From the NCBI GenBank assembly GCA_964409035.1, contig CAYPBQ010000005.1, positions 1 to 60,166 of the forward strand: DNA of 60,166 nucleotides, read 5' to 3'. A program made the position numbers and the translations under genes. Within the stretch, counting starts at the first letter, position 1; each line of letters begins with the position of its first letter. Source of the stretch: an uncultured Candidatus Saccharibacteria bacterium. GTDB taxonomy: Bacteria > Patescibacteriota > Minisyncoccia > Phycocordibacterales > UBA12088. Below, piece after piece: positions 1 to 54,808 of the stretch. The notes under the pieces are model-generated. The model did not search any database and was not told the DNA's origin. It worked only from the letters and a program-made list of their open reading frames with translations.

Positions 1-718
1 ACACCCCTTAGCCTAAAGCCGCACATATAAACTCGCCGGCTCATTCTTCAATAGGCATGCCGTGACGGATATTGCTACCCGCTCCGACTCCTTGTAAGCA
101 TACGGTTTCAGTTCTATTTCACCCTCCTTATCGGAGTAATTTTCACCTTTCCCTCACGGTACTGGTTCACTATCGGTCTCAATGTGTATTTAGCCTTAGC
201 GGTTAGTTCCGCCAGATTCATTCAAGCTATTCGTGTCTTGAACTACTCAGGTGTGACGACAAAAGAGACATGTTCGTTTCGTTTACAGGCCTATCACCTT
301 CTAGGGGGCTTCTTTCCAAAAGCTTCTCCTACGAACATACTTTGTAACTCTTCTAGTACAAGTACTACACCGTCATCCTACAACCCCAACGTATTACTAC
401 GTTGGTTTGGGCTCTTTCCGTTTCGCTCGCCGCTACTAAGGAAATTCCTGGAACTTCTTCACTCATAAGGCAAACATGTCGCCTCACGAGTAAAGAAGCT
501 CACTGTTGGTTTCTTTTCCTCCGGGTACTAAGATGTTTCAATTCCCCGGGTTGACGCCAAACAAAAGTTTGGCAACTGCTATGCAGTTAGGTTTCCCCAT
601 TCGGACATCGCCGGATCGAAGGTTGCTAGGCACCTCCCCGACGCTTATCGCAGCCGTGCTACGTCCTTCATCGCCACATTGAGCCAAGGCATCCACCGTA
701 TGCTCTTATCAGAACACT
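1..718 (-). rRNA. rrl: 23S rRNA, 5' portion (gene continues past the left window edge)
   Basis: The reverse complement contains conserved 23S domain I strings: ACGGTGGATGCCTTGGC, GGGGAATTGAAACATCTTAGTACCCGG and CCGATAGTGAACCAGTACCGTGAGGGAAAGGTGAAAA. The 5' end was placed by aligning from memory to E. coli 23S. Confidence 0.9.
454..498 (-). other. Extra 17-bp hairpin (expansion segment) inside 23S domain I
   Basis: RNA-sense sequence is cuucuuuacucgugagg-cgacauguuug-ccuuaugagugaagaag. All 17 positions pair, several as G-U, which only works in the rRNA-sense strand. It lies between GGAAAAGAAACCAAC and TTAGTAGCGGCGAGCG, which are nearly contiguous in E. coli (from memory). Confidence 0.6.
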
Positions 719-959
719 TCTTACGTATTCTGAAAACCGCATATGTATGCTTTTTTTTGATTGATTGCTTGCGGGATATGGTAAACGCTTACTCATATCC
801 TCGCTCGGTTTTTTCTTCCCACGTCCCACCCCTACGAAAGACCGTAACGGAGTGGGACACTCACACAGTGCGTCGAAACACTATGTGAGTTAATTTTGGT
901 ATGTGATTGTCAACGATCTTCTTCGAATACTCTTTGTACCCGAACGATCTATGAGGCGC

Positions 960-4727: not shown

Positions 4728-5480
4728 TTAAAGTTTACTGAGTAATTCTTCTATGTAGGCAACGAGTCCTTCATCACCTTGTTCTTTCGCAATGACTAAC
4801 GCTTCGTTGTATGTTTTTTTAGCGTCAGCATTTCTTCCTGCCTCATCATAGTAACTAGCAAGCAGCATAATAAGCTCGATACCCTTTTGGTTTTCCTTTA
4901 TGCCGGCAAGTAATATTTGTTCATCAGCTCCAGAACCCTGCTTATACGCATAGTGGTATAGTTCGTATAAGTTTTGAAAGGTCGCGGTGTAGTGTGGATG
5001 AGTTTTTGTTGTGGCTAACAATATCTCCTCTGCTTTTGCATACTCCTTTGTATGCAGATAGTAGAGCATGCCGATATTGTTTTTTGGAATAGCATCTTCA
5101 GGCCTTATTTTTGAAGCAAATTCCCATGCCTCAAGCGCGCCTGTGTAATCCCCTATTTGCTTTCGATAAATGCCAAGTAGTATCCAATCATCAAAGCTGT
5201 TTGGTGTCTTTCTTATGGTTGCAATAGTATTTTGAATACTCTTTCTCATATCCTCACTTGGTGCGTACTCCTCGACTGATCTAGTGAGTGAGGGCATCTG
5301 AGGTAGGTCATTCTTTGGTATGTCGGTTACTACCGTCTCTGCTGGGTTAATATCCACCTCAGTAGAAACACCCTCAGGAATAGTAGATGGCGCTACTTTG
5401 GATTGAATATATAGATACCCAAGTCCAGCGAGGAGCACAATGATTGCAATACCCCAGATAACTATTGTGCGTAGATTCAT
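4728..5480 (-). CDS. TPR-repeat protein with N-terminal membrane anchor
   Basis: TPR-like repeats (GDYTGALEAWEFASKIRPED, KEYAKAEEILLATTKTHP, GRNADAKKTYNEALVIAKE). I prefer the start at ATG 5480 because the upstream terminator occupies 5550..5585. Confidence 0.75.
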   Translation of the reverse strand: MNLRTIVIWGIAIIVLLAGLGYLYIQSKVAPSTIPEGVSTEVDINPAETVVTDIPKNDLPQMPSLTRSVEEYAPSEDMRKSIQNTIATIRKTPNSFDDWILLGIYRKQIGDYTGALEAWEFASKIRPEDAIPKNNIGMLYYLHTKEYAKAEEILLATTKTHPHYTATFQNLYELYHYAYKQGSGADEQILLAGIKENQKGIELIMLLASYYDEAGRNADAKKTYNEALVIAKEQGDEGLVAYIEELLSKL

Positions 5481-5549
5481 AAAAAATATTGTTAGTACAA
5501 GCCGATTGTAGCCAAGTATGGCGTGTATGGCAATAGGCTCAAGTATTAA

Positions 5550-5585
5550 AAACACAAAACCGCCCGAAAGGGCGGTTTTGTGTTT
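5550..5585 (-). terminator. Terminator of the giant surface-protein gene
   Basis: aaacacaaaaccgccc-gaaa-gggcggttttgtgttt, a 16-bp stem with a T-rich tail. Confidence 0.75.
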
Positions 5586-5615
5586 GACCTTTTGATCCTA
5601 GGTCTACCAATAAGA

Positions 5616-8600
5616 CTAGTTAGTCTTAGAGATAGTTACTAGATCAGAACCAGTTGAGGTTAGACCAGATACCTGGTAACCGTTGGTCCAGTCTGCTGTA
5701 CCAGCAGCTGAAGATCCTGTCGCATTTGGTGACCAGATAAAGTCATCATCTGCGTCAGCATCAACGTTAGATGCTGTTTCTACCAAAGTTGAAGCGCCGT
5801 GGTAATCAGCATCACCGCTGATTCGAGTTGATACCTGGCTGGTACCAGTCGAAGCGGTAACGTTCACGTCACCAACAACCTTGAAGTAGTAGGTCGCACC
5901 TGCTGGGATTTCGAGTACTGATGAAAGTACTGCGTTGTTATCACCAGAAGATACGAGACCAGGGATAGTTGCAACAATCTGACCATCAGTAAAGCCTGCC
6001 ACCGGTGCTGAGAATCCAGAGTTGGTGTAAGCGAATACCTTTAGGTTAGTAGTTGTAGCAGTTGAAGTAGCTACGTTAACGGTGAGCTTGTAGAGGTTAA
6101 TACCTGATCCTGAGTTATTAGCCGATATTGAGAATCGGTAAAGCTCATTAGCAGTACCCTTAACAAGTGTAGTTGAAGGAATATCGATCTTAGCGAAGGT
6201 TGGGAACGATCGGAAGATTCGTACTCCATCAGTAGCAGTGTCAGTACCAGTTACAACAACTGAAGTACCTGAACCTGTTACACCAACAGCCTTAGTGTTG
6301 CCAGCTTGGCCAACACCATCCCAGTCAATCTTAAGGTGAGCTCCTTGAGTACCAGACTGTGAAGAACCGATATTCTGGAGGTCTCCCTTAATAGTGAGCA
6401 TTACATCAGTATCCTTAGTTAGGTTAAGAGGAGATGTAAGAGATACAAGCGTAGTTGTTGCGCTTGAAGTAAATACACCCTCACCTACCTTAGTTGAACC
6501 GTTGTAAAGCATTACCTTGCCACCAACTAGGTTGTTAGCAGAGCTTGATGCAGCTGGGCTAGTGATCTGAAGTGCGATGTCCTGAAGAGAAAGGTCTTCA
6601 TTTGCAGCGCGAAGTCGAAGAACACCAAGAGTTACATCAGTAGCACCACCCGCAACAATTCTATACGCAGGACTTGATGAGTCCTTAGAAATAGTAAGAG
6701 TTGGAGTAGTTACTGTCATTACCTGTCCGTTAGCAGCAGAACCACTCTCAGTTACTGACTGACTAGATGTTACTCCAGTTGTAGTCATTGCAGCAGATGG
6801 AGTGTTGATACCCCACTGGTACTGAGATGATGAGTGCGCGCTACCTGAAAGGTTACACTTAAGTGCAAGAGTTTTAACAGTACCCTTTGGAACAACAAAC
6901 GAGTTATCAAGAGTGAATGTTGAAGTCACTGGTGAAGTCGTTGCTGAACCAGATACGTTAACTACGTTTGAACCTGTGTTAAGTGCTGTTGTTCCATCAA
7001 AGAGCTGGCAGCTCGTCATGTTGCTTGGAGCACCTGCCTTTGAATTGTCACCACCGTCGTAGTAAAGAGCGATTGATGAGAATCGAACATCTTCACCAGA
7101 TGCTGTTGCATCAAGTTGGTAGTTAGCAAATGTGAATCCTTGTACACCAGCTACAATGTTTTGTGCCGCTGGAGTACCAGACACGCTAACAGCAAGAGCC
7201 GCAGCCTTTACTGTCATGGTGTTCATTGTGAACGATGTGTTTGTGAGAGTGATGGTATCACCAGTCACTTCACCCTTTACATTTGTCCAAGATGATGGAT
7301 CGGTTGACGCGATAACGGTTGTTCCATTACCGAAGGTAGAAGGAACACGTCCCTTTATCGTGTATGTGTGCTTGCCAAGAGGCAAGGTAACCGTATCAGA
7401 GAAGGTTGCCCTTTGAACTGATGCGCTAACATACGTTGCATCAACTGGACCAGCTACCACTGCGCCGTTTTCATCAACAAGCGTAATGTTGGTCATAAGA
7501 CCGTAGCTAGAACCTGAAGATGTAGCGAAGTTAACAATCATCTGTTGTACAGTGACCGCCTCTCCCTTTACATCGATATCAAATCCGCCAAGTGGCTGAC
7601 CAGGAACATTGATAGCAATGTTCTGAGCAGGTACCTTAGCTGACTTTGAGATAGTTGATACTGAACCAGCCTCAACAGTTACTTTAGAACCATCGAAGAA
7701 TGGAGTACCAGTAGTGAACTCAGATGCAGTATCTGTTGCTGATGCTGTTGAAGCAGCGGTTGGTGTTATACCGTAACCGAATGTCTCGCCAGTCATGAAC
7801 ACATCGTTAGATTCGTCGATATCGAAGAATACGGTGCGTCCAGCAGCATTAGATCCAGTGATGTCTCCGCGAACGTATACATCTACTGAGAATCCTTCCT
7901 GGATAAGAATACCGCTACCAAAAGTAGAGGTGTAGTACTTTCCACCCTCTGAAGCAACAGTTGGGTATGAAGTACCGTCAACTACAGTAACGATGTTTGC
8001 AAGGTCAGACTCTGAAACAGAACCAGTCTGGTTCCATCGTACTGACTTTAGGCGAACATCCTCAGCTGATCCCGCAGTAACTCGGATACCAGAGAAAGTG
8101 TACCCTGTGGTACCTACTTCCTTAGTTCGAGATGTGTTTGGGTCAAATGAAGAAACGTCAAGAGTTGCAGTTCCGATTGCAAGTGTTGCATTCGTAGTGT
8201 GATTTGCTCCGTTGATTGGAAGAGTTCCAGAAACAGTCGCAGGAGTGTTAATACCTACAACCTGAAGACCTCCTACTTCACCAGCGTAAGAATCAAGTGA
8301 TGTTGGTGCATTAGCCGCAACAGTGAATGTCTTTGACGTTCCCTTTGCGATAGTGACCTTCTCACCTACGATTGCCTCGTGGTTAGAGTTAAGAGTCTTT
8401 GAAGATCCAAGCTGCATGCCGTTCTCATCAAGAAGTACTATGCCGTTGAAAGCTGACTTGTTGATAAGACCAGTTTTCTTAACAGTAACGCTGTTCATCA
8501 CAACATCACCATCAGAACCTGCAGTTACAGTAAATCGTGTGAATGGTACACGAGCTGCCTTCTCTACGAATAGAGCGTTAGCAGGCTGTGAAGCCGAACT

Positions 8601-24354: not shown

Positions 24355-24951
24355 TTAATGACTTCGGTACAACTGTGATGCACCTATTGCGTGATTTATT
24401 TCACCAACTAGAGTTGATTTCTTTTTCAGCATTAGGTCAATGGTTTCTCTGCTTATCATTGCAGTGATGGCATGGATGGAGGTGGCATCTTTTTCCATAT
24501 AACCAAGTTCTCCGAGAATATATCGCACCATATAGAGTTCTCTAAGAGCTCGAATAGTCTCCTCAGGCTCTTGTGCTATACACCGCATACCTTCTATAAA
24601 GGCGGTATACAGTGAGACGCTCATATCCTCTTCAACCACTAGTGCTTCTATCAGGCTTCCGATGCGTCGCATTTTCTCTCTATCTATCCTTCGCTCTAGA
24701 ATGGATTGCCACTGCAGTACCACTTGTACTCCAGTAACTCTCCAGAGTAATTTACCTCGCACCAACGAAAGCTCTATCTGTGAGAGTGGTTGTACCCCAT
24801 ACCTTAGACGTGAAGACTCTTTTCTACCACTTGTCACCACCGCTCGCACCACCCCCATCTCACGAGTAAGAAATGTGGCAAGTATATGCGCCTCTTTATA
24901 AGGACGCGCAGCAAGCACTATGGCTTCTGTCCGATATATATGGTGGCTCAT
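24355..24951 (-). CDS. recO: DNA repair protein RecO (short form)
   Basis: N-terminal OB YRTEAIVLAARPYKEAHILATFLTREMGVVRAVV, typical of RecO. Confidence 0.8.
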   Translation of the reverse strand: MSHHIYRTEAIVLAARPYKEAHILATFLTREMGVVRAVVTSGRKESSRLRYGVQPLSQIELSLVRGKLLWRVTGVQVVLQWQSILERRIDREKMRRIGSLIEALVVEEDMSVSLYTAFIEGMRCIAQEPEETIRALRELYMVRYILGELGYMEKDATSIHAITAMISRETIDLMLKKKSTLVGEINHAIGASQLYRSH

Positions 24952-27900
24952 GTAGCAATCGAAAAGGATAGTGAGTATCCTTCCGCATCGTGGCGATACG
25001 GCTGTTCAGTTTCAGAATATATAATATTGATGACCTTAGTTGTTTTCATTATCTCAGATTGATACCGTTCAATAAACGCGCGTGTCTTTAGTTCCGCACA
25101 AACAGTAAGTGACGCGCTATCAAATGGAGATAGTCCCTTCTCTTTTCTTGTGTCTTGGATTGCGCGCAACAAGTCTCGGAGTATTCCTTCTTCAATAAGA
25201 ATTTCATCAAGCGTAGTATCAAGAGAGACTTCCTCACCCTCCTTCCTGTCGTATATCACCTCTTTTACGTTCACCTCTTCCTTTATCAATTCTGGATATA
25301 TTGCGATATCGCTATGCAACAACAACGCCCTCAGTGGTTGTCGTACTTTTATACCAGCACTTGCGCGTAGTTTAAGCGCGCGTGATACCACTCCCCGAGT
25401 AGCCTCCATCGTGGTGATAGCCTCTTGATTATCACCCTCAGCTTGTGGCCAACTTGCAAGATGAACGCTTAGCGGACTCTCTTTGGTGCGAACCTTTTGA
25501 TACACCTCTTCAGCAATAAATGGTGTAAATGGCGCCATTACTTTTGCGAGTGTCTCAAGCACGTACCGAGTGGTTGCAAGCGCATACATTGTGTCTTCAT
25601 CAGAATCACCCTTATACCTATCTCGTGAACGACGTACATACCACTGTGATAAATCAGCAATAAATTCTCGTATCGCTCGGGAAGATTCAAGCAGTCTATA
25701 TTCATCAAGAGCCTTTGTGGTAGTAGTGATTAGCCGAGAAAGTGTTGCTAGTATCCACACATCAAGTACGTGTGGACTCTCAAATGGATTCACCGTTGTT
25801 TCCTTTGCGTAAAGCTCATACAAGGCAACGGTATTTATAAGTGGGTTAAATACTTTTTTAGTTATGTCATCAACGGTACTTTGATCAAAATTTTTGGAGT
25901 CACCAGGTTGATTGACGCTATACATAAACAACCTAAGCGCATCCACCCCATGAAGCGCCATCATCTCCCATGGATTTACAATATTTCCAAGAGATTTTGA
26001 CATTTTCTTTCCTTTATCATCAAGGATGTGTCCCAAACAAATGACGTTTTTATACGCTCTGCCGCGGCCCAATATTACTCCTACCGCATGGAGGGTATAA
26101 AACCACCCCCTCGTCTGGTCGATTGCTTCTGCAATATAATCAGCAGGAAACCCGTGAGTATCTACCCATTCTTTATTCTCAAATGGGTAATGGTCTTGGG
26201 CGTAAGGCATGCATCCGCTATCAAACCACACGTCCATTACTTCCTTTACCCTTGTAAGGGTGGTTCCATTATCGCTATAGAGTATGACATCATCTACATA
26301 CGGGCGGTGTAAATCTATCTCGTATGATTCATTGTATGGAAGTGGGACAAACGAAACCTCTCTCACTTCTGCCGTTTTGGGAAAATCTCCTTCGTCGTAC
26401 GCCTTCTTTGAGCGATCCTCGCTATACCCTTTTGAAATAGCAAGACTCATCCATACTACATCCGCGTGGGTAACCACAAGAATAGACTCATTTTCATGTT
26501 CGTTGTTCCTCTGTGTTAAAAAGGAGCCTACTCGAGTGCGAACATCTCTGATGGTTTCCCCACCCTCTGGCGCGTGGGTAAATGACTTATGGTGAGGAAT
26601 TTGCGCATCCATTTCATGGATAGGTCTTCCATCAAATACTCCAAAATTTGTTTCTCGTAAGCGTTCATCAATTATTGCAGCAGGGAGTCCTAACGCTTCT
26701 GTGATAAGCGCGGCAGTTTCTAGCGTTCGAGGAAGTGGTGATGTGTAGACTTTTGTTATACCGAGGGAGCGCAATTCTTCAATGCGGGCTAGTACTTGTC
26801 TCCTTCCTTCATCAGTAAGGGTATTGTGTTCATCAATACTACTATTGAGATAGTGGTTAACGTTTGACTCTGCTTCTCCGTGTCGCATGACTACAAATTT
26901 ATTCTTCGGAGGCTTCATGTGTGCCCTCATGGTTTCAATAGAATCAACCACGAGTCGCTCTTTATTATCTGATGATACCCACACTGGTAGTGGTGTGCCC
27001 CAGTATCGCTCGCGTGAGAGTGCCCAATCTTTTACTCCACTGAGCCACTCGCCAAATCGCCCATCTTTGATATGGGATGGCTCCCAATTTATTTTTTGAT
27101 TTTCTTCAACAAGGGCGTCGCGAAGTGTAGACATGGCAAAATACCATGAGTCATGCGCGTAATAGATTATTGGCTGTTTACATCTCCAGCAAAATGGATA
27201 CGTGTGAGTAACTTTTTCTTTTTTAAATATACGCTCACCTAGTTCGCGTAATATTGTTTTTTCTGCTTCAGAAAAAACATCTTTTTCCTTTGCTACAAGC
27301 CCAGAGAGTGGACCAGTACCTTCAACAAATTTTCCACTCTCATCAACAAGGTGAAATTTTGGAAGCCCTGCTGTAGTACCGAGCTCAAAGTCGTCCTGAC
27401 CATACATTACGGCAGTGTGTACTATGCCAGTACCATCAAGTGTAGTAACAAATGATGCATCATATACTTTATATGCTCTTTCCAATCGTTCTTTTTGATC
27501 TTCTGGCAACAAGGTACCTAGGTATGGAAACAGTGGTTCATACGAAGTACCGACAAGATCCTTACCCATTAGGGTACGTATCACTTCTGTATCTTCTCCA
27601 AGCACCGCTATGCGATCTTTTGCTACGTAATAATACTTGGTGTCCTTTTTAACTTTTACATATTCAACTGAATCGTTTACTGCAAGCGCGACATTGCCGG
27701 GCAATGTCCATGGTGTCGTTGTCCAGGCAAGTAAGTAAGTATCATCTTCCCCCACCACCTTAAACGCCACATACACTGACACATCAGAGACCTCGTCATA
27801 TCCCTGCGCGAGCTCATGACTTGATAACCCCGTCCCACAACGAGCACACCATGGCACCACTTTGTAATCCTTATATAAAAGATTCTTCTTGTCTGCTTCT

Positions 27901-28406
27901 TTTACCACGTGCCACACTGACTCGATGTAATCACTTTTATAGGTGACATATGCATCATCAATATCTACCCAATACCCTATACGCTTGGTAAATGCTTGCC
28001 ACTCACTCGCGTACGTCCATACACTTTTTTTACACTCTTCATTAAATGCCGCGACACCGAATGTTTCTATGTCTTTTTTGTTTTTCAGACCAAGACGCTT
28101 TTCTACCTCAAGCTCAACAGGTAGACCATGTGTATCCCATCCACCCTTTCGGCGAACATGATATCCCTGCATGGTTTTATATCGAGGGATAATATCTTTA
28201 AATGATCTAGCCTCAATGTGGTGTATACCTGGGCGGCCATTTGCGGTTGGCGGACCTTCATAGAAAATAAATTCACCCCTTGGGGAGTCTTTCTCAAGTG
28301 TTTTTTTGAATACCTCGTACTCGTCCCAAAAAGCGAGTATGTTGCTTTCCCGTTTTGCTGCCTCGCCAGAGGCATATTCTTTCATAAAATCGTTATAGTC
28401 TTTCAT
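24948..28406 (-). CDS. ileS: Isoleucyl-tRNA synthetase (type 2) with an inserted histidine-phosphatase domain
   Basis: PPTANGRPGIHH, WCARCGT, WTTTPWTLPGN, WGTPLPVW, DVWFDSG and KMSKSLGN. An insert of about 190 aa carries VMRHGEAESN, SPLPRTLETA, RLRETNFG and VVTHADV. Confidence 0.95.
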   Translation of the reverse strand: MKDYNDFMKEYASGEAAKRESNILAFWDEYEVFKKTLEKDSPRGEFIFYEGPPTANGRPGIHHIEARSFKDIIPRYKTMQGYHVRRKGGWDTHGLPVELEVEKRLGLKNKKDIETFGVAAFNEECKKSVWTYASEWQAFTKRIGYWVDIDDAYVTYKSDYIESVWHVVKEADKKNLLYKDYKVVPWCARCGTGLSSHELAQGYDEVSDVSVYVAFKVVGEDDTYLLAWTTTPWTLPGNVALAVNDSVEYVKVKKDTKYYYVAKDRIAVLGEDTEVIRTLMGKDLVGTSYEPLFPYLGTLLPEDQKERLERAYKVYDASFVTTLDGTGIVHTAVMYGQDDFELGTTAGLPKFHLVDESGKFVEGTGPLSGLVAKEKDVFSEAEKTILRELGERIFKKEKVTHTYPFCWRCKQPIIYYAHDSWYFAMSTLRDALVEENQKINWEPSHIKDGRFGEWLSGVKDWALSRERYWGTPLPVWVSSDNKERLVVDSIETMRAHMKPPKNKFVVMRHGEAESNVNHYLNSSIDEHNTLTDEGRRQVLARIEELRSLGITKVYTSPLPRTLETAALITEALGLPAAIIDERLRETNFGVFDGRPIHEMDAQIPHHKSFTHAPEGGETIRDVRTRVGSFLTQRNNEHENESILVVTHADVVWMSLAISKGYSEDRSKKAYDEGDFPKTAEVREVSFVPLPYNESYEIDLHRPYVDDVILYSDNGTTLTRVKEVMDVWFDSGCMPYAQDHYPFENKEWVDTHGFPADYIAEAIDQTRGWFYTLHAVGVILGRGRAYKNVICLGHILDDKGKKMSKSLGNIVNPWEMMALHGVDALRLFMYSVNQPGDSKNFDQSTVDDITKKVFNPLINTVALYELYAKETTVNPFESPHVLDVWILATLSRLITTTTKALDEYRLLESSRAIREFIADLSQWYVRRSRDRYKGDSDEDTMYALATTRYVLETLAKVMAPFTPFIAEEVYQKVRTKESPLSVHLASWPQAEGDNQEAITTMEATRGVVSRALKLRASAGIKVRQPLRALLLHSDIAIYPELIKEEVNVKEVIYDRKEGEEVSLDTTLDEILIEEGILRDLLRAIQDTRKEKGLSPFDSASLTVCAELKTRAFIERYQSEIMKTTKVINIIYSETEQPYRHDAEGYSLSFSIAT

Positions 28407-28465
28407 GTGTTTTGCCTAAATCTGCGTACATCACCCATAGTAGTATTGTGCGCCCTATTTGTCAC

Positions 28466-28496
28466 GCAAAAAAGATAGCTCACTTTCGTGAGCTAT
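28466..28496 (-). terminator. Terminator after the 28493..28888 ORF
   Basis: atagctcac-gaaa-gtgagctat followed by cttttttg on the minus strand. The stop codon lies inside the stem. Confidence 0.6.
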
Positions 28497-28888
28497 GTTT
28501 GGAAACGTCTTAAATAAACAACATTATTTTCTGGTTCAGGAACCGAACATGAGGCGGTAAGTACAAGCTTGGTGTAGAAACCAGACAATAGCTGGGACTT
28601 TATTTTGGCTATGTCTATTGCTAATTTACTTGTAAGTGTATGGGTACAGTACCAAAATTTATCCTCAAAAAGAGAATCTCTCTGTTCTGGAACTTTTAAT
28701 TCCAGCCTCAGAAATCCACAAGCATTATACCTCTTGGTCAGCTGAATTATATGTGCCCCGGCCTGAAGAATCATCATCTCCCACTCACACCCTGTTACCA
28801 CAGCGGTGTGTAGCTGATCTAGTGAAGAAAATTGCACAAGCAGCACTTTTGTGTCGATGCAAACAAGCTTTCTTGAACGACTAAGCAT
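28493..28888 (-). CDS. Hypothetical Cys-containing protein (orphan)
   Basis: 131-aa ORF filling the ileS-argS gap, on the same strand as its neighbours and with its own terminator. I recognise no family. Confidence 0.4.
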   Translation of the reverse strand: MLSRSRKLVCIDTKVLLVQFSSLDQLHTAVVTGCEWEMMILQAGAHIIQLTKRYNACGFLRLELKVPEQRDSLFEDKFWYCTHTLTSKLAIDIAKIKSQLLSGFYTKLVLTASCSVPEPENNVVYLRRFQT

Positions 28889-28944
28889 GAGATGTCTCCC
28901 TTTTGCCTACAGAAGAAAATACCTCGTGGTATATTTTTGCGCAA

Positions 28945-30624
28945 CTACATTTCCGTAGGCGCTTTCATACCCAAAAGGTACAACCCTCTCTCTAGGGTGA
29001 TTCTGAAGGCGTCGGTAACCGCCACTCGATACGGAGCATACGCATCATCTGCAACAACGATTTTTTCTTGCGCGTACATGCTGTTAAACAACGCCGCGAG
29101 TTTTATAAGGTACGTAGTAAGATGATGTGGTTCATACTCGTTAAGTGCTCGCGCAATAACATAGGGAAAATGCGCAAGTTCTTTTTCAAGTGGCGATGCA
29201 GTATCTGGCACTATCTCATGTGATGCCTGTACCTCCATAGCCGCCGCCTTACGAAGCACGGAGCACGCCCGAGTGTGGGCATACTGTAGATAAGGACCTG
29301 AGTTTCCTTCAAATGAAAGTGATGCGTCTTGGTCAAAGGCAATATTTTTTCCCATTCTCTGTTTAAGGATGGAATACTTTATTGCTGCTACCGCTACTGC
29401 ATCTGCTATTTCTGTCTTCTTGTCACCAAGCTCCCTGTCCTTCATTTTTTCATACGCCTTCTCTCGCATATCATCTATGAGTGATTCGCCAGTGACAACA
29501 TTCCCCTTTCGTGAGGACATTTTACCTTCTGAAAGTTGCATCATGCCGTGAGATATGTGCCGATAGGTACCTGCATGCGCTGGCCACAACATATCCATCG
29601 CTTTTGTTACCACCTTAAAGTACTGTTCTTGCTCTACCGCAGTTATGGTTATATTTTCATCGTATGAAAACGCTTTTCTCTTTAATACCGCAAGACCAAG
29701 CTCTTTGGTTTCGTATGTTGGGGTACCTTTTGAAGTAATGAAGACTCGAGTATGGAGTCCATATTGCTCACCGTTAAAAACAACAGCGCCATCACTTTCT
29801 TCGAAGATTTTTTTTGCAAGACCTTCCTCAACTACTTCACGCCCCACTGGGGCTGTTTCTGTTTCAAAAAAATAGTAGTCAAATGTGGTGCCAAGCACCG
29901 CATACAACACCTCAAAGCGCGCCAGTGAAGTTTCTCTACCTTGTATATACAGTGGCGACTCACGCAGCTCACCGCTATATAGACGTTTGTTGATATCATC
30001 TATTTCTTTTTTTGCTTCAGCATCCTCTTCATACGCTGCAGTTCCCTCTACATATGCATCAGCAAGCACCGCTACATCATCTGCAGAAGCTCCACGCTTC
30101 ATGAGCGCCCACATAGTTTTTGCCACATGAGGACCTATGTCGCCCTGATAGTTAGCACGCTTAATGGTGGCGCCAGCATTCTCTATAAGGCGAGAAATCG
30201 ACTCGCCAATAGTGTTAGACATGAGGTGTCCAATATGAAATGGCTTGAAAGGATTTGGCTGCGTATACTCAACCAATATATTTCTACCTTTTAGCGAAGT
30301 TGATGATCCCCACTCATTTCTACCCTCTCGTATTGATCTAATAGTGGAACTAAAATAGTCTCTCGCGAATGAAAAATTGATATACCCGGGTTTTGCAACC
30401 GTAGCGGTTTCAATATAAGGAGGTAATTGTATATAAGGCAGTATCCGCTGTGCCTCTTCGATTGGTGTAGCCCCTGTCACGCTTGCCACCACAAATGCAA
30501 CGTTTGAAGCAAAATCTCCATAAGTAGCGTCATCAGTTACACCAACTGAAAAATCACCCGCAGGTATTTGAAGCCCTGCAAGCGCTCCTCGAATTGCTGA
30601 TGTTAATTCTTCCGTTTCCTTCAT
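28945..30624 (-). CDS. argS: Arginyl-tRNA synthetase
   Basis: NPFKPFHIGHLMSNTIGES, a C-terminal DALR anticodon-binding region, and a ...KAPTEM end. I prefer ATG 30624 (MKETEEL...) over the TTG at 30642. Confidence 0.93.
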   Translation of the reverse strand: MKETEELTSAIRGALAGLQIPAGDFSVGVTDDATYGDFASNVAFVVASVTGATPIEEAQRILPYIQLPPYIETATVAKPGYINFSFARDYFSSTIRSIREGRNEWGSSTSLKGRNILVEYTQPNPFKPFHIGHLMSNTIGESISRLIENAGATIKRANYQGDIGPHVAKTMWALMKRGASADDVAVLADAYVEGTAAYEEDAEAKKEIDDINKRLYSGELRESPLYIQGRETSLARFEVLYAVLGTTFDYYFFETETAPVGREVVEEGLAKKIFEESDGAVVFNGEQYGLHTRVFITSKGTPTYETKELGLAVLKRKAFSYDENITITAVEQEQYFKVVTKAMDMLWPAHAGTYRHISHGMMQLSEGKMSSRKGNVVTGESLIDDMREKAYEKMKDRELGDKKTEIADAVAVAAIKYSILKQRMGKNIAFDQDASLSFEGNSGPYLQYAHTRACSVLRKAAAMEVQASHEIVPDTASPLEKELAHFPYVIARALNEYEPHHLTTYLIKLAALFNSMYAQEKIVVADDAYAPYRVAVTDAFRITLERGLYLLGMKAPTEM

Positions 30625-30670
30625 AGTGGAAGCATGCCACAAAAATCTAAATGCTCAACCAGCAGCCACT

Positions 30671-46260: not shown

Positions 46261-46304
46261 CGGCAACAACCGAAACGCATTCGCGTATTCGGTCTGCCGA
46301 TTTG

Positions 46305-46377
46305 GGCGACTACTGGGAATCGAACCCAGATCAGGGGCTCCACAAACCCCTGTGTTGACCATTACACCATAGTCGCC
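46305..46377 (-). tRNA. tRNA-His (anticodon GTG) with encoded G-1
   Basis: Manual fold: G-1, acceptor GCGACTA/TAGTCGC, U8, D-stem GTGT/ACAC, anticodon arm GGGGT-TTGTGGA-GCCCC, T-arm CTGGG-TTCGATT-CCCAG, discriminator C. CCA is not fully encoded. Confidence 0.9.
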
Positions 46378-54602: not shown

Positions 54603-54686
54603 GCCCAGGTGGTGAAATTGGTATACACGCTACCTTGAGGTGGTAGTGGCCGCAAGGCTGTGCAGGTTCAAGTCCTGTCCTGGGCA
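54603..54686 (+). tRNA. tRNA-Leu (anticodon GAG), long variable arm
   Basis: Manual fold: acceptor GCCCAGG/CCTGGGC, anticodon arm CTACC-TTGAGGT-GGTAG, variable arm TGGCCGCAAGGCTG, T-loop TTCAAGT. Confidence 0.9.
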
Positions 54687-54808
54687 CAAAAACAAAAGAG
54701 CCGGATGCGTATGCATTCGGCGATTATTGTTTTGTCGTCCAGATAGGACTTGCACCACAAGAGTACTTCCATTTTTATCTCCCCACGGTCGTAAAAATTA
54801 GGTGGCAC

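Follow-up and report, generated by a model that had tools for sequence, protein, structure and literature searches.

The ileS gene of this patescibacterial genome very probably encodes a bifunctional protein, in which a complete type-2 isoleucyl-tRNA synthetase (IleRS) carries, at the tip of its CP3 subdomain, an autonomously folding and catalytically competent phosphomonoesterase of the PhoE/PspA type. The gene lies in the window, the 60,166-nucleotide stretch of DNA analysed here. An earlier note had proposed that a surface loop of the synthetase holds an in-frame branch-1 histidine phosphatase with an intact catalytic site, and the continuous reading frame and the invariance of the predicted catalytic residues bear this out. 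The parts of the protein are as follows:

24948..28406, minus strand: ileS, type-2 isoleucyl-tRNA synthetase of 1152 aa with the nested phosphatase (continuous open reading frame)
26907..28406, minus strand: N-terminal IleRS part, aa 1-500 (Pfam and NCBIfam matches, 1ILE alignment)
28218..28229, minus strand: class I signature motif in the non-canonical form GIHH, aa 60-63 (sequence)
26319..26906, minus strand: insert, aa 501-696, 196 aa (alignments to 1ILE, 6LDK and 8C8V)
26421..26894, minus strand: His_Phos_1 (branch-1 histidine phosphatase) catalytic domain, aa 505-662 (Pfam PF00300)
26880..26885, minus strand: R508-H509 of the RHG motif, H509 being the predicted phospho-acceptor (orthologue alignment)
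26727..26729, minus strand: R560, second phosphate-binding arginine (orthologue alignment; comparison with PhoE, PspA and TIGAR)
26652..26654, minus strand: E585, predicted proton donor (orthologue alignment, E, rarely D; comparison with PhoE, PspA and TIGAR)
26466..26468, minus strand: H647, second catalytic histidine (orthologue alignment; comparison with PhoE, PspA and TIGAR)
26319..26420, minus strand: return arm, aa 663-696, a helix and short strand leading back into CP3 (alignment, structure model)
24951..26318, minus strand: C-terminal IleRS part, aa 697-1152 (Pfam matches, 1ILE alignment)

The protein scores 860 bits against the NCBIfam ileS model TIGR00392 (cut-off 621), and 860 also with its neighbours in frame. 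The N-terminal part comprises the first Rossmann half, the CP core, the CP1 editing domain, CP2 and the first strand of CP3, with the threonine-rich editing peptide of CP1 (TTTPWTLPGN) at aa 229-238 and the CP3 first strand (WGTPLPVW) at aa 469-476. The C-terminal part holds the rest of CP3, the second Rossmann half, Anticodon_1 and DUF5915, with DVWFDSG at aa 725-731 and KMSKS at aa 801-805 (window 25992-26006). The GIHH signature conforms to G/AXHH, the accepted IleRS2 variant of the class I motif (PMC10485003). The type-2 organisation is evident from Anticodon_1 together with DUF5915 and from the lack of the IleRS1 zinc-binding C-terminal domain. In Foldseek comparisons of the structure model, IleRS2 and eukaryotic IleRS are the best matches (1ILE, TMt 0.93; 8C8V, TMt 0.83; 31-37% identity), whereas IleRS1 structures match less well, with an rmsd of about 10 A. 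The gene is single-copy, with no second IleRS in the 748-kb, 99.8%-complete genome. Since it is the only ileS there, the enzyme presumably aminoacylates tRNA(Ile) with isoleucine.

The boundaries of the insert were defined by alignment with type-2 IleRSs, the limits of CP3 being taken from PMC7191050. Residue 500 pairs with residue 483 of the Thermus thermophilus enzyme (Tth IleRS, 1ILE) and residue 697 with residue 488, so that the insert spans aa 501-696 and takes the place of a 4-residue turn in CP3 (Tth IleRS 484-487). The position first proposed, 26316-26900, was correct within a few bases (26319-26906 by the 1ILE alignment), but the loop length of 25-30 residues given for type-2 enzymes was not: about 60 residues lie between WGTPLP and DVWFDSG in Tth IleRS, and only the 4-residue turn is replaced. 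The junctions read KNK/FVV and SYE/IDL. An intein or mobile element was considered and rejected, as the junctions lack intein-type residues and neither flanking repeats nor a compositional break are found, with a GC content of 0.44-0.46 across the insert that equals that of the flanks. The four zinc-ligand cysteines that flank the insert in Tth IleRS and the family consensus have all been lost from the CP3 encoded in the window, although insert and cysteines coexist in most orthologues.

The insert is recognised as a phosphatase with high significance. The PF00300 match to aa 505-662 (E=1.4e-33, 116.7 bits, cut-off 21.7; 120.9 bits in a second search) interrupts the match to the tRNA-synt_1 domain, and the matches to PF00300 and PF00133 are both significant. 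All four motifs quoted in the earlier note are present, namely MRHGEAESN at aa 507-515, SPLPRTLETA at aa 556-565, ERLRETNFG at aa 581-589 and VVTHADVV at aa 644-651. Residues R508, H509, R560, E585 and H647 line up with their catalytic counterparts in PhoE (1EBB), to which the insert is similar with E=1.6e-14, and the insert was also aligned with PspA (4IJ5) and TIGAR (3E9C). NCBIfam equivalog phosphatase models matched only below their cut-offs. The AlphaFold model of the protein is confident (pLDDT 91, pTM 0.84), with values of 80-97 in the blocks of the insert, and it shows the phosphatase domain as alternating strands and helices with pLDDT 80-97. The return arm is a conserved feature of nested forms (consensus AE.....F...P.N...E.DLHRPY) that free forms lack; nested homologues match up to query residue 206, while free ones end at about residue 165-185.

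The predicted catalytic residues are conserved far more strictly than the domain that carries them. R508-H509, R560, E585 and H647 are invariant in 51/51 orthologues, in which the identity of the insert is 29-50%, and R508-H509 is conserved in all 225 of 225 full-length domains from all contexts. Apart from truncated fragments and E-to-D changes, the set R-H-(N)-R-E/D-H is kept throughout, in 187 IleRS site-A, five IleRS site-B, 11 ValRS, two AlaRS and 10 tandem-copy domains. Compared with a same-genus genome, dN/dS is about 0.04 for the insert, close to the 0.05 of the remaining enzyme.

A scan of genome contigs, based on a closer 6-sequence alignment, found the insert in at least 479 species-level genomes. 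Among 401 sampled genomes of the phylum, 61 have the domain in a long ORF, and all 27 of the 27 long host ORFs inspected are aminoacyl-tRNA synthetases (aaRSs). These hosts are IleRS, either at CP3 or at a second site near aa 870, ValRS at the homologous loop and the class II enzyme AlaRS; one further fusion was found, to a 442-aa VTT-domain protein. Tandem arrays of two to four phosphatase copies also occur, every copy with the catalytic set. The domain tree requires at least three independent switches to ValRS and at least five switches between free and nested forms on starred branches. A close homologue is absent from about 60% of sampled Patescibacteria, and IleRSs without the insert occur within the same class, so that the phosphatase activity is no intrinsic part of isoleucylation. 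Besides the insert, the genome has a single His_Phos protein, which is free and 209 aa long. That the insert might be a recent duplicate of this free gene was rejected, the two sharing 30% identity over 83 aa only and falling in different clades.

In relatives, a free phosphatase gene is placed between argS and ileS. The neighbours of ileS in the window, identified by gene-order comparison, are:

28945..30642, minus strand: argS (ArgRS), conserved upstream neighbour
24355..24951, minus strand: recO-like gene, conserved downstream neighbour, in the same order in L134
22372..24333, minus strand: gene for a DUF11-domain protein, in the conserved order argS-ileS-recO-DUF11

The free gene of the clade adjoins ileS in five of six informative look-ups and in three sister-family genomes. 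One relative has the order argS-HP-ileS-recO-DUF11, where HP is the free phosphatase gene, with spacers of 1-3 nt and an order that matches the window exactly. In another lineage a free HP and two free Nudix genes lie between argS and an IleRS with a nested NUDIX domain. More distant free paralogues (L010, L014-L019) have heterogeneous gene contexts, and the genes that separate HP from ileS in sister-family genomes (AOX-like, hemerythrin, Fic-like) are uninformative. A relic of the free gene in the 538-bp gap between argS and ileS of the window was looked for and dismissed, the gap giving no HMM signal and being unconserved within the genus; a 131-aa ORF in it has no Pfam match. Neither the Rfam scan nor the tRNA scan of the window gave a match near ileS.

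As to its role, the phosphatase may be a nucleotide- or tRNA-end-directed clean-up module that operates in partnership with the synthetase, a reading that we prefer tentatively. H509 would attack a phosphomonoester to form a phospho-histidine, which would then be hydrolysed by water with the assistance of E585. The expected substrate would be a nucleotide-type species that arises at, or blocks, the aminoacylation reaction. Candidates are a 2'/3'-phosphate on the tRNA acceptor end, or the phosphate that would remain there after pyrophosphate cleavage, and adenylate-derived by-products such as breakdown products of dinucleoside polyphosphates or pAp-like nucleotides. The Nudix hydrolases found in the same gene or neighbourhood in sister lineages could represent the pyrophosphatase half of a two-step clean-up. 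Tethering or operon coupling would hold the activity near the synthetase and in stoichiometric proportion to it. A closed substrate channel is probably not involved, given that some lineages use the domain as a separate gene product.

A partnership with the synthetase is suggested by the near-exclusive aaRS hosts, the catalytically intact tandem arrays, the repeated switches and the free gene beside ileS. A nucleotide-type substrate is suggested by the Nudix genes of relatives, by the SR1 IleRS with its Nudix and two phosphoglycerate mutase (PGM) domains, and by the weak MutT1 match of the free paralogue. Against clean-up, the closest characterised relatives (PhoE, PspA, TIGAR, GpgP and CobC) are small-molecule and not nucleic-acid enzymes, and both the many Patescibacteria that lack a close homologue and the insert-free IleRSs of the class speak in the same direction. 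Furthermore, the Nudix link comes from relatives and not from this genome, and Pfam finds no Nudix domain in this IleRS.

The main rival, which is a real possibility, holds that the domain is a passenger: a housekeeping phosphatase for an ordinary small phosphometabolite, unrelated to aminoacylation, for which an essential, constitutive gene as host or neighbour guarantees expression in a regulator-poor genome. The nearest characterised relatives, being broad-specificity or metabolite phosphatases, fit this well, as do the function of the domain as a free gene in some lineages and its absence from many Patescibacteria. IleRS and ValRS loops of CPR bacteria also host GNAT and Nudix domains, which agrees with permissive loops serving as general docking sites. 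However, every long host inspected is an aaRS, although aaRSs amount to about 1% of the proteome; the hosts span three synthetase families with two protein folds, and no other large essential proteins are among them. In addition, the free gene stays with ileS in several clades.

Much less probable is a glycolytic role, in which the nested domain would be the cell's missing phosphoglycerate mutase, of a short dPGM-like kind. The genome has an enolase but no iPGM or any other member of the Metalloenzyme superfamily (PF01676), which is missing from seven of the eight genomes of its order as well, and the best NCBIfam phosphatase-family match of the insert is to archaeal short dPGM (93 bits, against 37 bits for the free His_Phos paralogue). 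Against this, the scores of 89-93 bits for NF038349 compare with a cut-off of 225, TIGR01258 is unmatched, and models of the GpmA type either give no match or fall far short of their cut-offs. The residues that define dPGM by retaining its substrate are H-G-N after the second histidine and an RR motif. The insert has T-H647-A-D instead of H-G-N, and no RR motif lies between E585 and H647. Replacement of a missing PGM was also rejected as the general reason for the insert, as an iPGM-sized PF01676 gene is present in 40 of 61 aaRS-embedded carriers and 242 of 340 non-carriers, so that no complementarity exists across the 401 genomes. Moreover, aaRS-specific hosting would be left unexplained.

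Similarly improbable, and conjectural throughout, is a protein phosphatase or regulator like PGAM5, Sts or SixA that would remove an inhibitory phosphate from IleRS or a translation factor, for instance by reversing HipA-like phosphorylation near KMSKS. Branch 1 does include protein and phospho-histidine phosphatases, the SixA model weakly matches free relatives, and an antidote tethered in cis would account for fusion to several aaRSs; nevertheless, the insert has no specific similarity to SixA or PGAM5, its best matches are metabolite phosphatases, and the gene neighbourhood shows no evident kinase partner. Two further roles were rejected separately: that of a pyrophosphatase surrogate, the genome having a soluble PPase (PF00719, 197 bits), and that of processing 5'-triphosphate tRNA ends after loss of RNase P, the RNase P RNA being present (137 bits).

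An inert spacer or selfish insertion, that is, a tolerated non-functional passenger or a structural substitute for the lost zinc knuckle, is highly improbable. It would suit the loss of all four zinc-ligand cysteines in the window and the location of the insert on a surface subdomain, but the catalytic residues do not vary among more than 200 diverged domains, duplicated copies included, dN/dS is 0.04, intein-type junctions, flanking repeats and a compositional break are lacking, and most orthologues combine insert and cysteines. The domain-level parasite raised in the earlier note is likewise unlikely, because of the low dN/dS and the conservation of the catalytic set even in tandem copies. 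Finally, an assembly chimera or frameshift artefact, for which the metagenomic origin of the sequence is the sole argument, is excluded: contigs from four separate runs of a single bioreactor study, possibly with the source sample among them, carry the stretch unbroken and free of joints or differences, and independent support comes from the same architecture in a same-genus genome at 87-89% identity and in orthologues of at least 479 further species-level genomes. No RNA run holding the stretch was found among those searched.

Aminoacyl-tRNA synthetases are among the best-studied enzymes, and added catalytic domains, such as CP1 editing and the appended domains of eukaryotes, have repeatedly revealed new biology. 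Here, three synthetase families, belonging to two structural classes, have repeatedly captured an apparently active phosphatase, which is otherwise kept in an argS-HP-ileS operon, in hundreds of species at least of the largest uncultivated bacterial radiation. If its targets are tRNA ends or adenylate by-products, this would constitute a new step of translation quality control or repair, and perhaps also a device against toxins; if it is a passenger, it would still be a clean natural case of nested-domain engineering in an essential enzyme. A more far-reaching and rather doubtful extension is that Patescibacteria added to their aaRSs a third catalytic activity, beside synthesis and editing, that conditions nucleotide substrates, the phosphatase being embedded in IleRS, ValRS or AlaRS, or else coupled to ileS in translation, and sometimes accompanied by Nudix hydrolases. 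Possibly, it would clear the A76 end of tRNA of a 2'/3'-phosphate or pyrophosphate block left by toxins of the toxSAS/CapRel or RNase type; alternatively, adenylate-derived by-products or poisons might be destroyed at the source. On a practical level, the automated label 'phosphoglycerate mutase' can falsely complete glycolysis in CPR reconstructions, a hazard that applies to this genome because it has enolase and no recognisable PGM.

In the literature, one mention of phosphatase domains nested in IleRS was found, and no functional study. The IleRS of SR1, another lineage of Patescibacteria, was described in one sentence as split by a Nudix and two phosphoglycerate mutase domains (Kantor et al. 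2013, PMC3812714). The remark of the earlier note that such an enzyme is not known to be described has to be qualified accordingly. The JGI pipeline also names some orthologues 'isoleucyl-tRNA synthetase/bisphosphoglycerate-dependent phosphoglycerate mutase'. The SR1 enzyme represents the same phenomenon, but with two phosphatase domains and a Nudix domain instead of the single CP3 domain here. A curated precedent for an unrelated enzyme nested in IleRS is NCBIfam NF040702, 'isoleucine--tRNA ligase, N-acetyltransferase domain-containing', which concerns another enzyme family at another site, inside CP1, and is also functionally uncharacterised; one relative (P0178) combines two GNAT domains and the present phosphatase in one IleRS.

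The whole body of the synthetase resembles the type-2 IleRSs of T. thermophilus (1ILE), Priestia megaterium (IleRS2, 8C8V) and Candida albicans (6LDK), with the Rossmann halves, CP core, CP1, CP2, CP3, KMSKS and the anticodon-binding and C-terminal domains in common. It differs from these references by the 196-aa enzyme domain in place of the 4-residue CP3 turn, from Tth IleRS also by the loss of the CP3 zinc ligands, and its signature motif is GIHH instead of HxGH. The insert, in turn, shares the catalytic residues, their order and a core of about 160 aa with Geobacillus PhoE (1EBB/1H2E), Hydrogenobacter PspA (4IJ5), TIGAR (3E9C), GpgP (4PZ9) and CobC. Unlike free short branch-1 phosphatases, it is nested in another enzyme, has a 34-aa return arm and stands outside the curated equivalog families.

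The CP1 editing domain of class Ia synthetases is likewise a hydrolytic Rossmann insertion that provides a second active site. However, CP1 is universal and ancient and acts on an aminoacyl ester, whereas the insert is lineage-specific, appears interchangeable with a free gene and is predicted to catalyse phosphoryl transfer. Histidine phosphatases are also joined to nucleotide or nucleic-acid enzymes in mycobacterial MutT1 (NF052459), a Nudix-histidine-phosphatase fusion, and in the Rv2228c-type RNase H/acid phosphatase (NF005567). NF005567 matches the insert at 82 bits and the model of MutT1, an 8-oxo-(d)GTP phosphatase, weakly matches the free paralogue, both far below cut-offs. In contrast to these end-to-end fusions, which contain no synthetase, the phosphatase described here is nested within its host enzyme.

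The sole isoleucyl-tRNA synthetase (IleRS) of this genome (one copy in 748 kb on 7 contigs, 99.8% complete) carries, nested in its CP3 connective peptide, a real, conserved and selected histidine phosphatase domain that, judged from its residues, is apparently active. The features of the enzyme are:

24948-28406, minus strand: ileS, an uninterrupted open reading frame for the 1152-aa IleRS (P0001)
26319-26906, minus strand: insert, aa 501-696 (196 aa), delimited by HMM alignment to solved IleRSs
26940-26985 (aa ~474-489) and 26250-26290 (aa ~706-719), minus strand: segments with lost zinc ligands, from the alignment
28218-28229, minus strand: class I signature motif GIHH (aa 60-63), of the non-canonical G/AXHH form, from the sequence

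P0001 scores 860 bits against the NCBIfam ileS model TIGR00392 (cut-off 621) and contains the Pfam domains tRNA-synt_1, Anticodon_1 and DUF5915. Its AlphaFold model (mean pLDDT 91.3, pTM 0.84) superposes on the type-2 IleRSs of Thermus thermophilus (1ILE, TMt 0.93) and P. megaterium (IleRS2, 8C8V, TMt 0.83). The tRNA-synt_1 match is interrupted at aa 505-662 by His_Phos_1 (PF00300, E=1.4e-33) within the unbroken frame, which bears out the earlier note's claim of an in-frame phosphatase insert. The insertion point, which that note had left to an alignment with type-2 enzymes, is now fixed by pairwise HMM alignment of P0001 to solved IleRS structures: residue 500 aligns with T. thermophilus residue 483 and residue 697 with residue 488, and therefore 196 residues stand in for a four-residue turn (484-487). 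In the C. albicans IleRS, the replaced turn is located at ~497-504, within the CP3 subdomain (473-534; PMC7191050), which in the T. thermophilus enzyme also holds the zinc motif (PMC7191050). Both the T. thermophilus enzyme and the consensus of the insert-bearing orthologues keep the CP3 zinc-ligand cysteines, whereas P0001 has lost all four, showing VSSDNKE and ILYSDNG around the insert in place of C..C pairs. The xxHH signature motif is also the consensus of the insert-bearing IleRS family, and in IleRS2 the G/AXHH form is tied to an up to 1000-fold higher Ki for mupirocin (Brkic et al., PMC10485003). Elsewhere, the window contains a bacterial 23S rRNA gene (1-719, minus strand), of which only the 5' part lies inside the window edge, and genes for tRNA-His (46304-46376, minus strand) and tRNA-Leu(GAG) (54603-54687, plus strand).

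An assembly artefact, considered in the earlier note, is countered by contigs from four runs of one bioreactor study, all of which carry the stretch contiguous and identical, and IleRS and insert are arranged alike in a same-genus genome. Against that genome, dN/dS (Nei-Gojobori) comes to 0.038 in the insert and 0.050 in the remaining enzyme; synonymous sites are nearly saturated in this comparison. GC content stays level through the insert, and no flanking repeats were found around it. The full branch-1 catalytic set is in register with PhoE (1EBB); among 51 orthologues with an insert identity of 29-50%, R508, H509, R560, E585 and H647 never vary and N515 hardly does. The catalytic signature is apparently intact, as first proposed.

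The domain is widespread among related genomes. A word-indexed search returned 59 clusters, every one an IleRS with PF00300, which their sources name Parcubacteria, Paceibacterota, Sungbacteria, Vogelbacteria or Spechtbacterales. Scanning a single genome from each species gave at least 479 matching stretches, with Kaiserbacteria, Nomurabacteria, Taylorbacteria, Lloydbacteria, Adlerbacteria, Minisyncoccia and Parcubacteria RAAC4_OD1_1 among the titles of the matches listed. In an even sample of the phylum (401 genomes), the domain lies within a long ORF in 61, including every one of the eight genomes from the window's order and 12 of the 16 others from its class. All 27 long-ORF hosts inspected, out of these 61, are synthetases. 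Besides the CP3 site, IleRS can carry the phosphatase at a second site, around P0001 aa 870, where the stem-contact fold meets the anticodon-binding domain (L022, L024, L027), as two tandem copies, or at both sites (P0139 and P0166). P0178 (1561 aa) is an IleRS combining two GNAT acetyltransferase domains with one His_Phos, and NCBI curates a model for IleRS with GNAT. In 10 genomes the host is ValRS, with the domain in the homologous loop; one truncated metagenomic ValRS (P0062, 1161 aa) has four His_Phos domains, with catalytic residues in all. In the class II AlaRS (2 genomes, only 6 clusters found), the insert lies between residues 207 and 210 in Aquifex numbering, occupying the hairpin that joins the active-site strands WNxVFMQ and IDTGMGLER. 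The AlaRS hosts and one host of another kind lie at:

L031 3645-5969 and L032 3802-6129, plus strand: AlaRS with His_Phos at aa 220-395 (NF002436, 875 bits)
L126 3340-4665, minus strand: 442-aa fusion of a VTT/DedA-type membrane domain with His_Phos_1, the single non-synthetase host seen

Across these contexts, the catalytic set is intact in 187 IleRS-CP3, 5 second-site, 11 ValRS, 2 AlaRS and 10 tandem-protein domains, the sole departures being truncated fragments and E-to-D changes.

The phosphatase also occurs as a free gene. One family of the window's class has an IleRS free of the insert, together with a separate homologue of 189-213 aa whose gene lies in the same orientation between argS and ileS. 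Among free representatives taken from different clades of the domain tree, the gene adjoins ileS in five of six informative look-ups: it overlaps the ileS start (L133), lies 119 nt (L137) or a few genes (L130) upstream, or converges with ileS across a 3-nt gap (L129). L134 is a tight operon, argS-HP-ileS-x-recO-DUF11, identical in gene order to the window, but with the phosphatase (HP) as a separate gene. In the window itself, the argS-ileS gap (28407-28944, 538 bp) holds a 131-aa ORF (28493-28888, minus strand) without a Pfam match; no remnant of a phosphatase gene is seen in the gap, which is not kept in the same-genus genome. On the 120-row domain tree, the sister-family free genes fall within the IleRS-CP3 clade, and context labels switch 22 times, a rough figure given the short domain and many open forks. 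The starred branches force, as rough counts, at least six changes for IleRS-CP3, five for free and three for ValRS contexts. More distant free paralogues are not near ileS, including that of the window's own genome:

G000:C1:48790-49278 (L010 1366-1995), minus strand: 209-aa second His_Phos_1 gene, free-standing, 1 nt downstream of dnaX

This paralogue shares merely 30% identity over 83 aa with the insert and groups, on a long branch, with a ValRS-embedded clade.

Recurrent fusion and conserved adjacency argue strongly for an evolutionary partnership of the phosphatase with synthetases, above all IleRS. A pointer to nucleotides comes from Nudix partners in relatives. At L130 (8129-10564, plus strand, and 5001-7318), IleRS carries a NUDIX domain at aa 226-325, nested in CP1, and argS, a free His_Phos gene and two free Nudix genes lie upstream of it in the same orientation. 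A Nudix step followed by a phosphatase is a well-known way of processing nucleotide-pyrophosphate substrates in two steps, and mycobacterial MutT1 is a fusion of both; the NCBIfam MutT1 model weakly matches the own genome's free paralogue. We tentatively lean toward a clean-up activity, directed at nucleotides or tRNA ends, that may serve the aminoacylation reaction. Since free forms exist, such a phosphatase would act by proximity to the synthetase, not by channelling. The main rival, a housekeeping phosphatase carried along by an essential gene, agrees with the nearest relatives being small-molecule phosphatases and with the absence of the domain from ~60% of the phylum; we hold it to be only somewhat less likely than the clean-up reading.

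A replacement for phosphoglycerate mutase (PGM) has some local appeal. The genome encodes enolase (C1:22022-22786) and no iPGM, apgM or any PF01676 protein, leaving the insert and the 209-aa free His_Phos as its only PGM-superfamily candidates, and this gap is common to seven of the eight genomes of the order. However, an iPGM-sized PF01676 gene is about equally frequent in carriers of the aaRS-embedded domain (40/61) and non-carriers (242/340), the insert's top NCBIfam phosphatase-family match, archaeal short dPGM, reaches 93 bits against a cut-off of 225, and the insert lacks the H-G-N and RR features that we take to define mutases. PGM replacement is therefore ruled out as the general reason for the insert, and PGM moonlighting may occur locally in the window's order. 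Metabolic reconstructions could be misled where automated annotation labels an IleRS 'phosphoglycerate mutase'. A surrogate pyrophosphatase and clean-up of leaderless 5'-triphosphate tRNAs are both rejected, because the genome encodes a soluble PPase and an RNase P RNA, respectively.

The insert goes unmentioned in a 2026 preprint on the evolution of IleRS domains. In a full-text search (IleRS or aminoacyl-tRNA with histidine phosphatase, phosphoglycerate mutase, Patescibacteria or CPR), the printed record of an aaRS-nested histidine phosphatase comes down to a single sentence in Kantor et al. (2013); the known system is the IleRS of SR1, which is divided by a Nudix and two PGM domains (Kantor et al. 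2013, PMC3812714).
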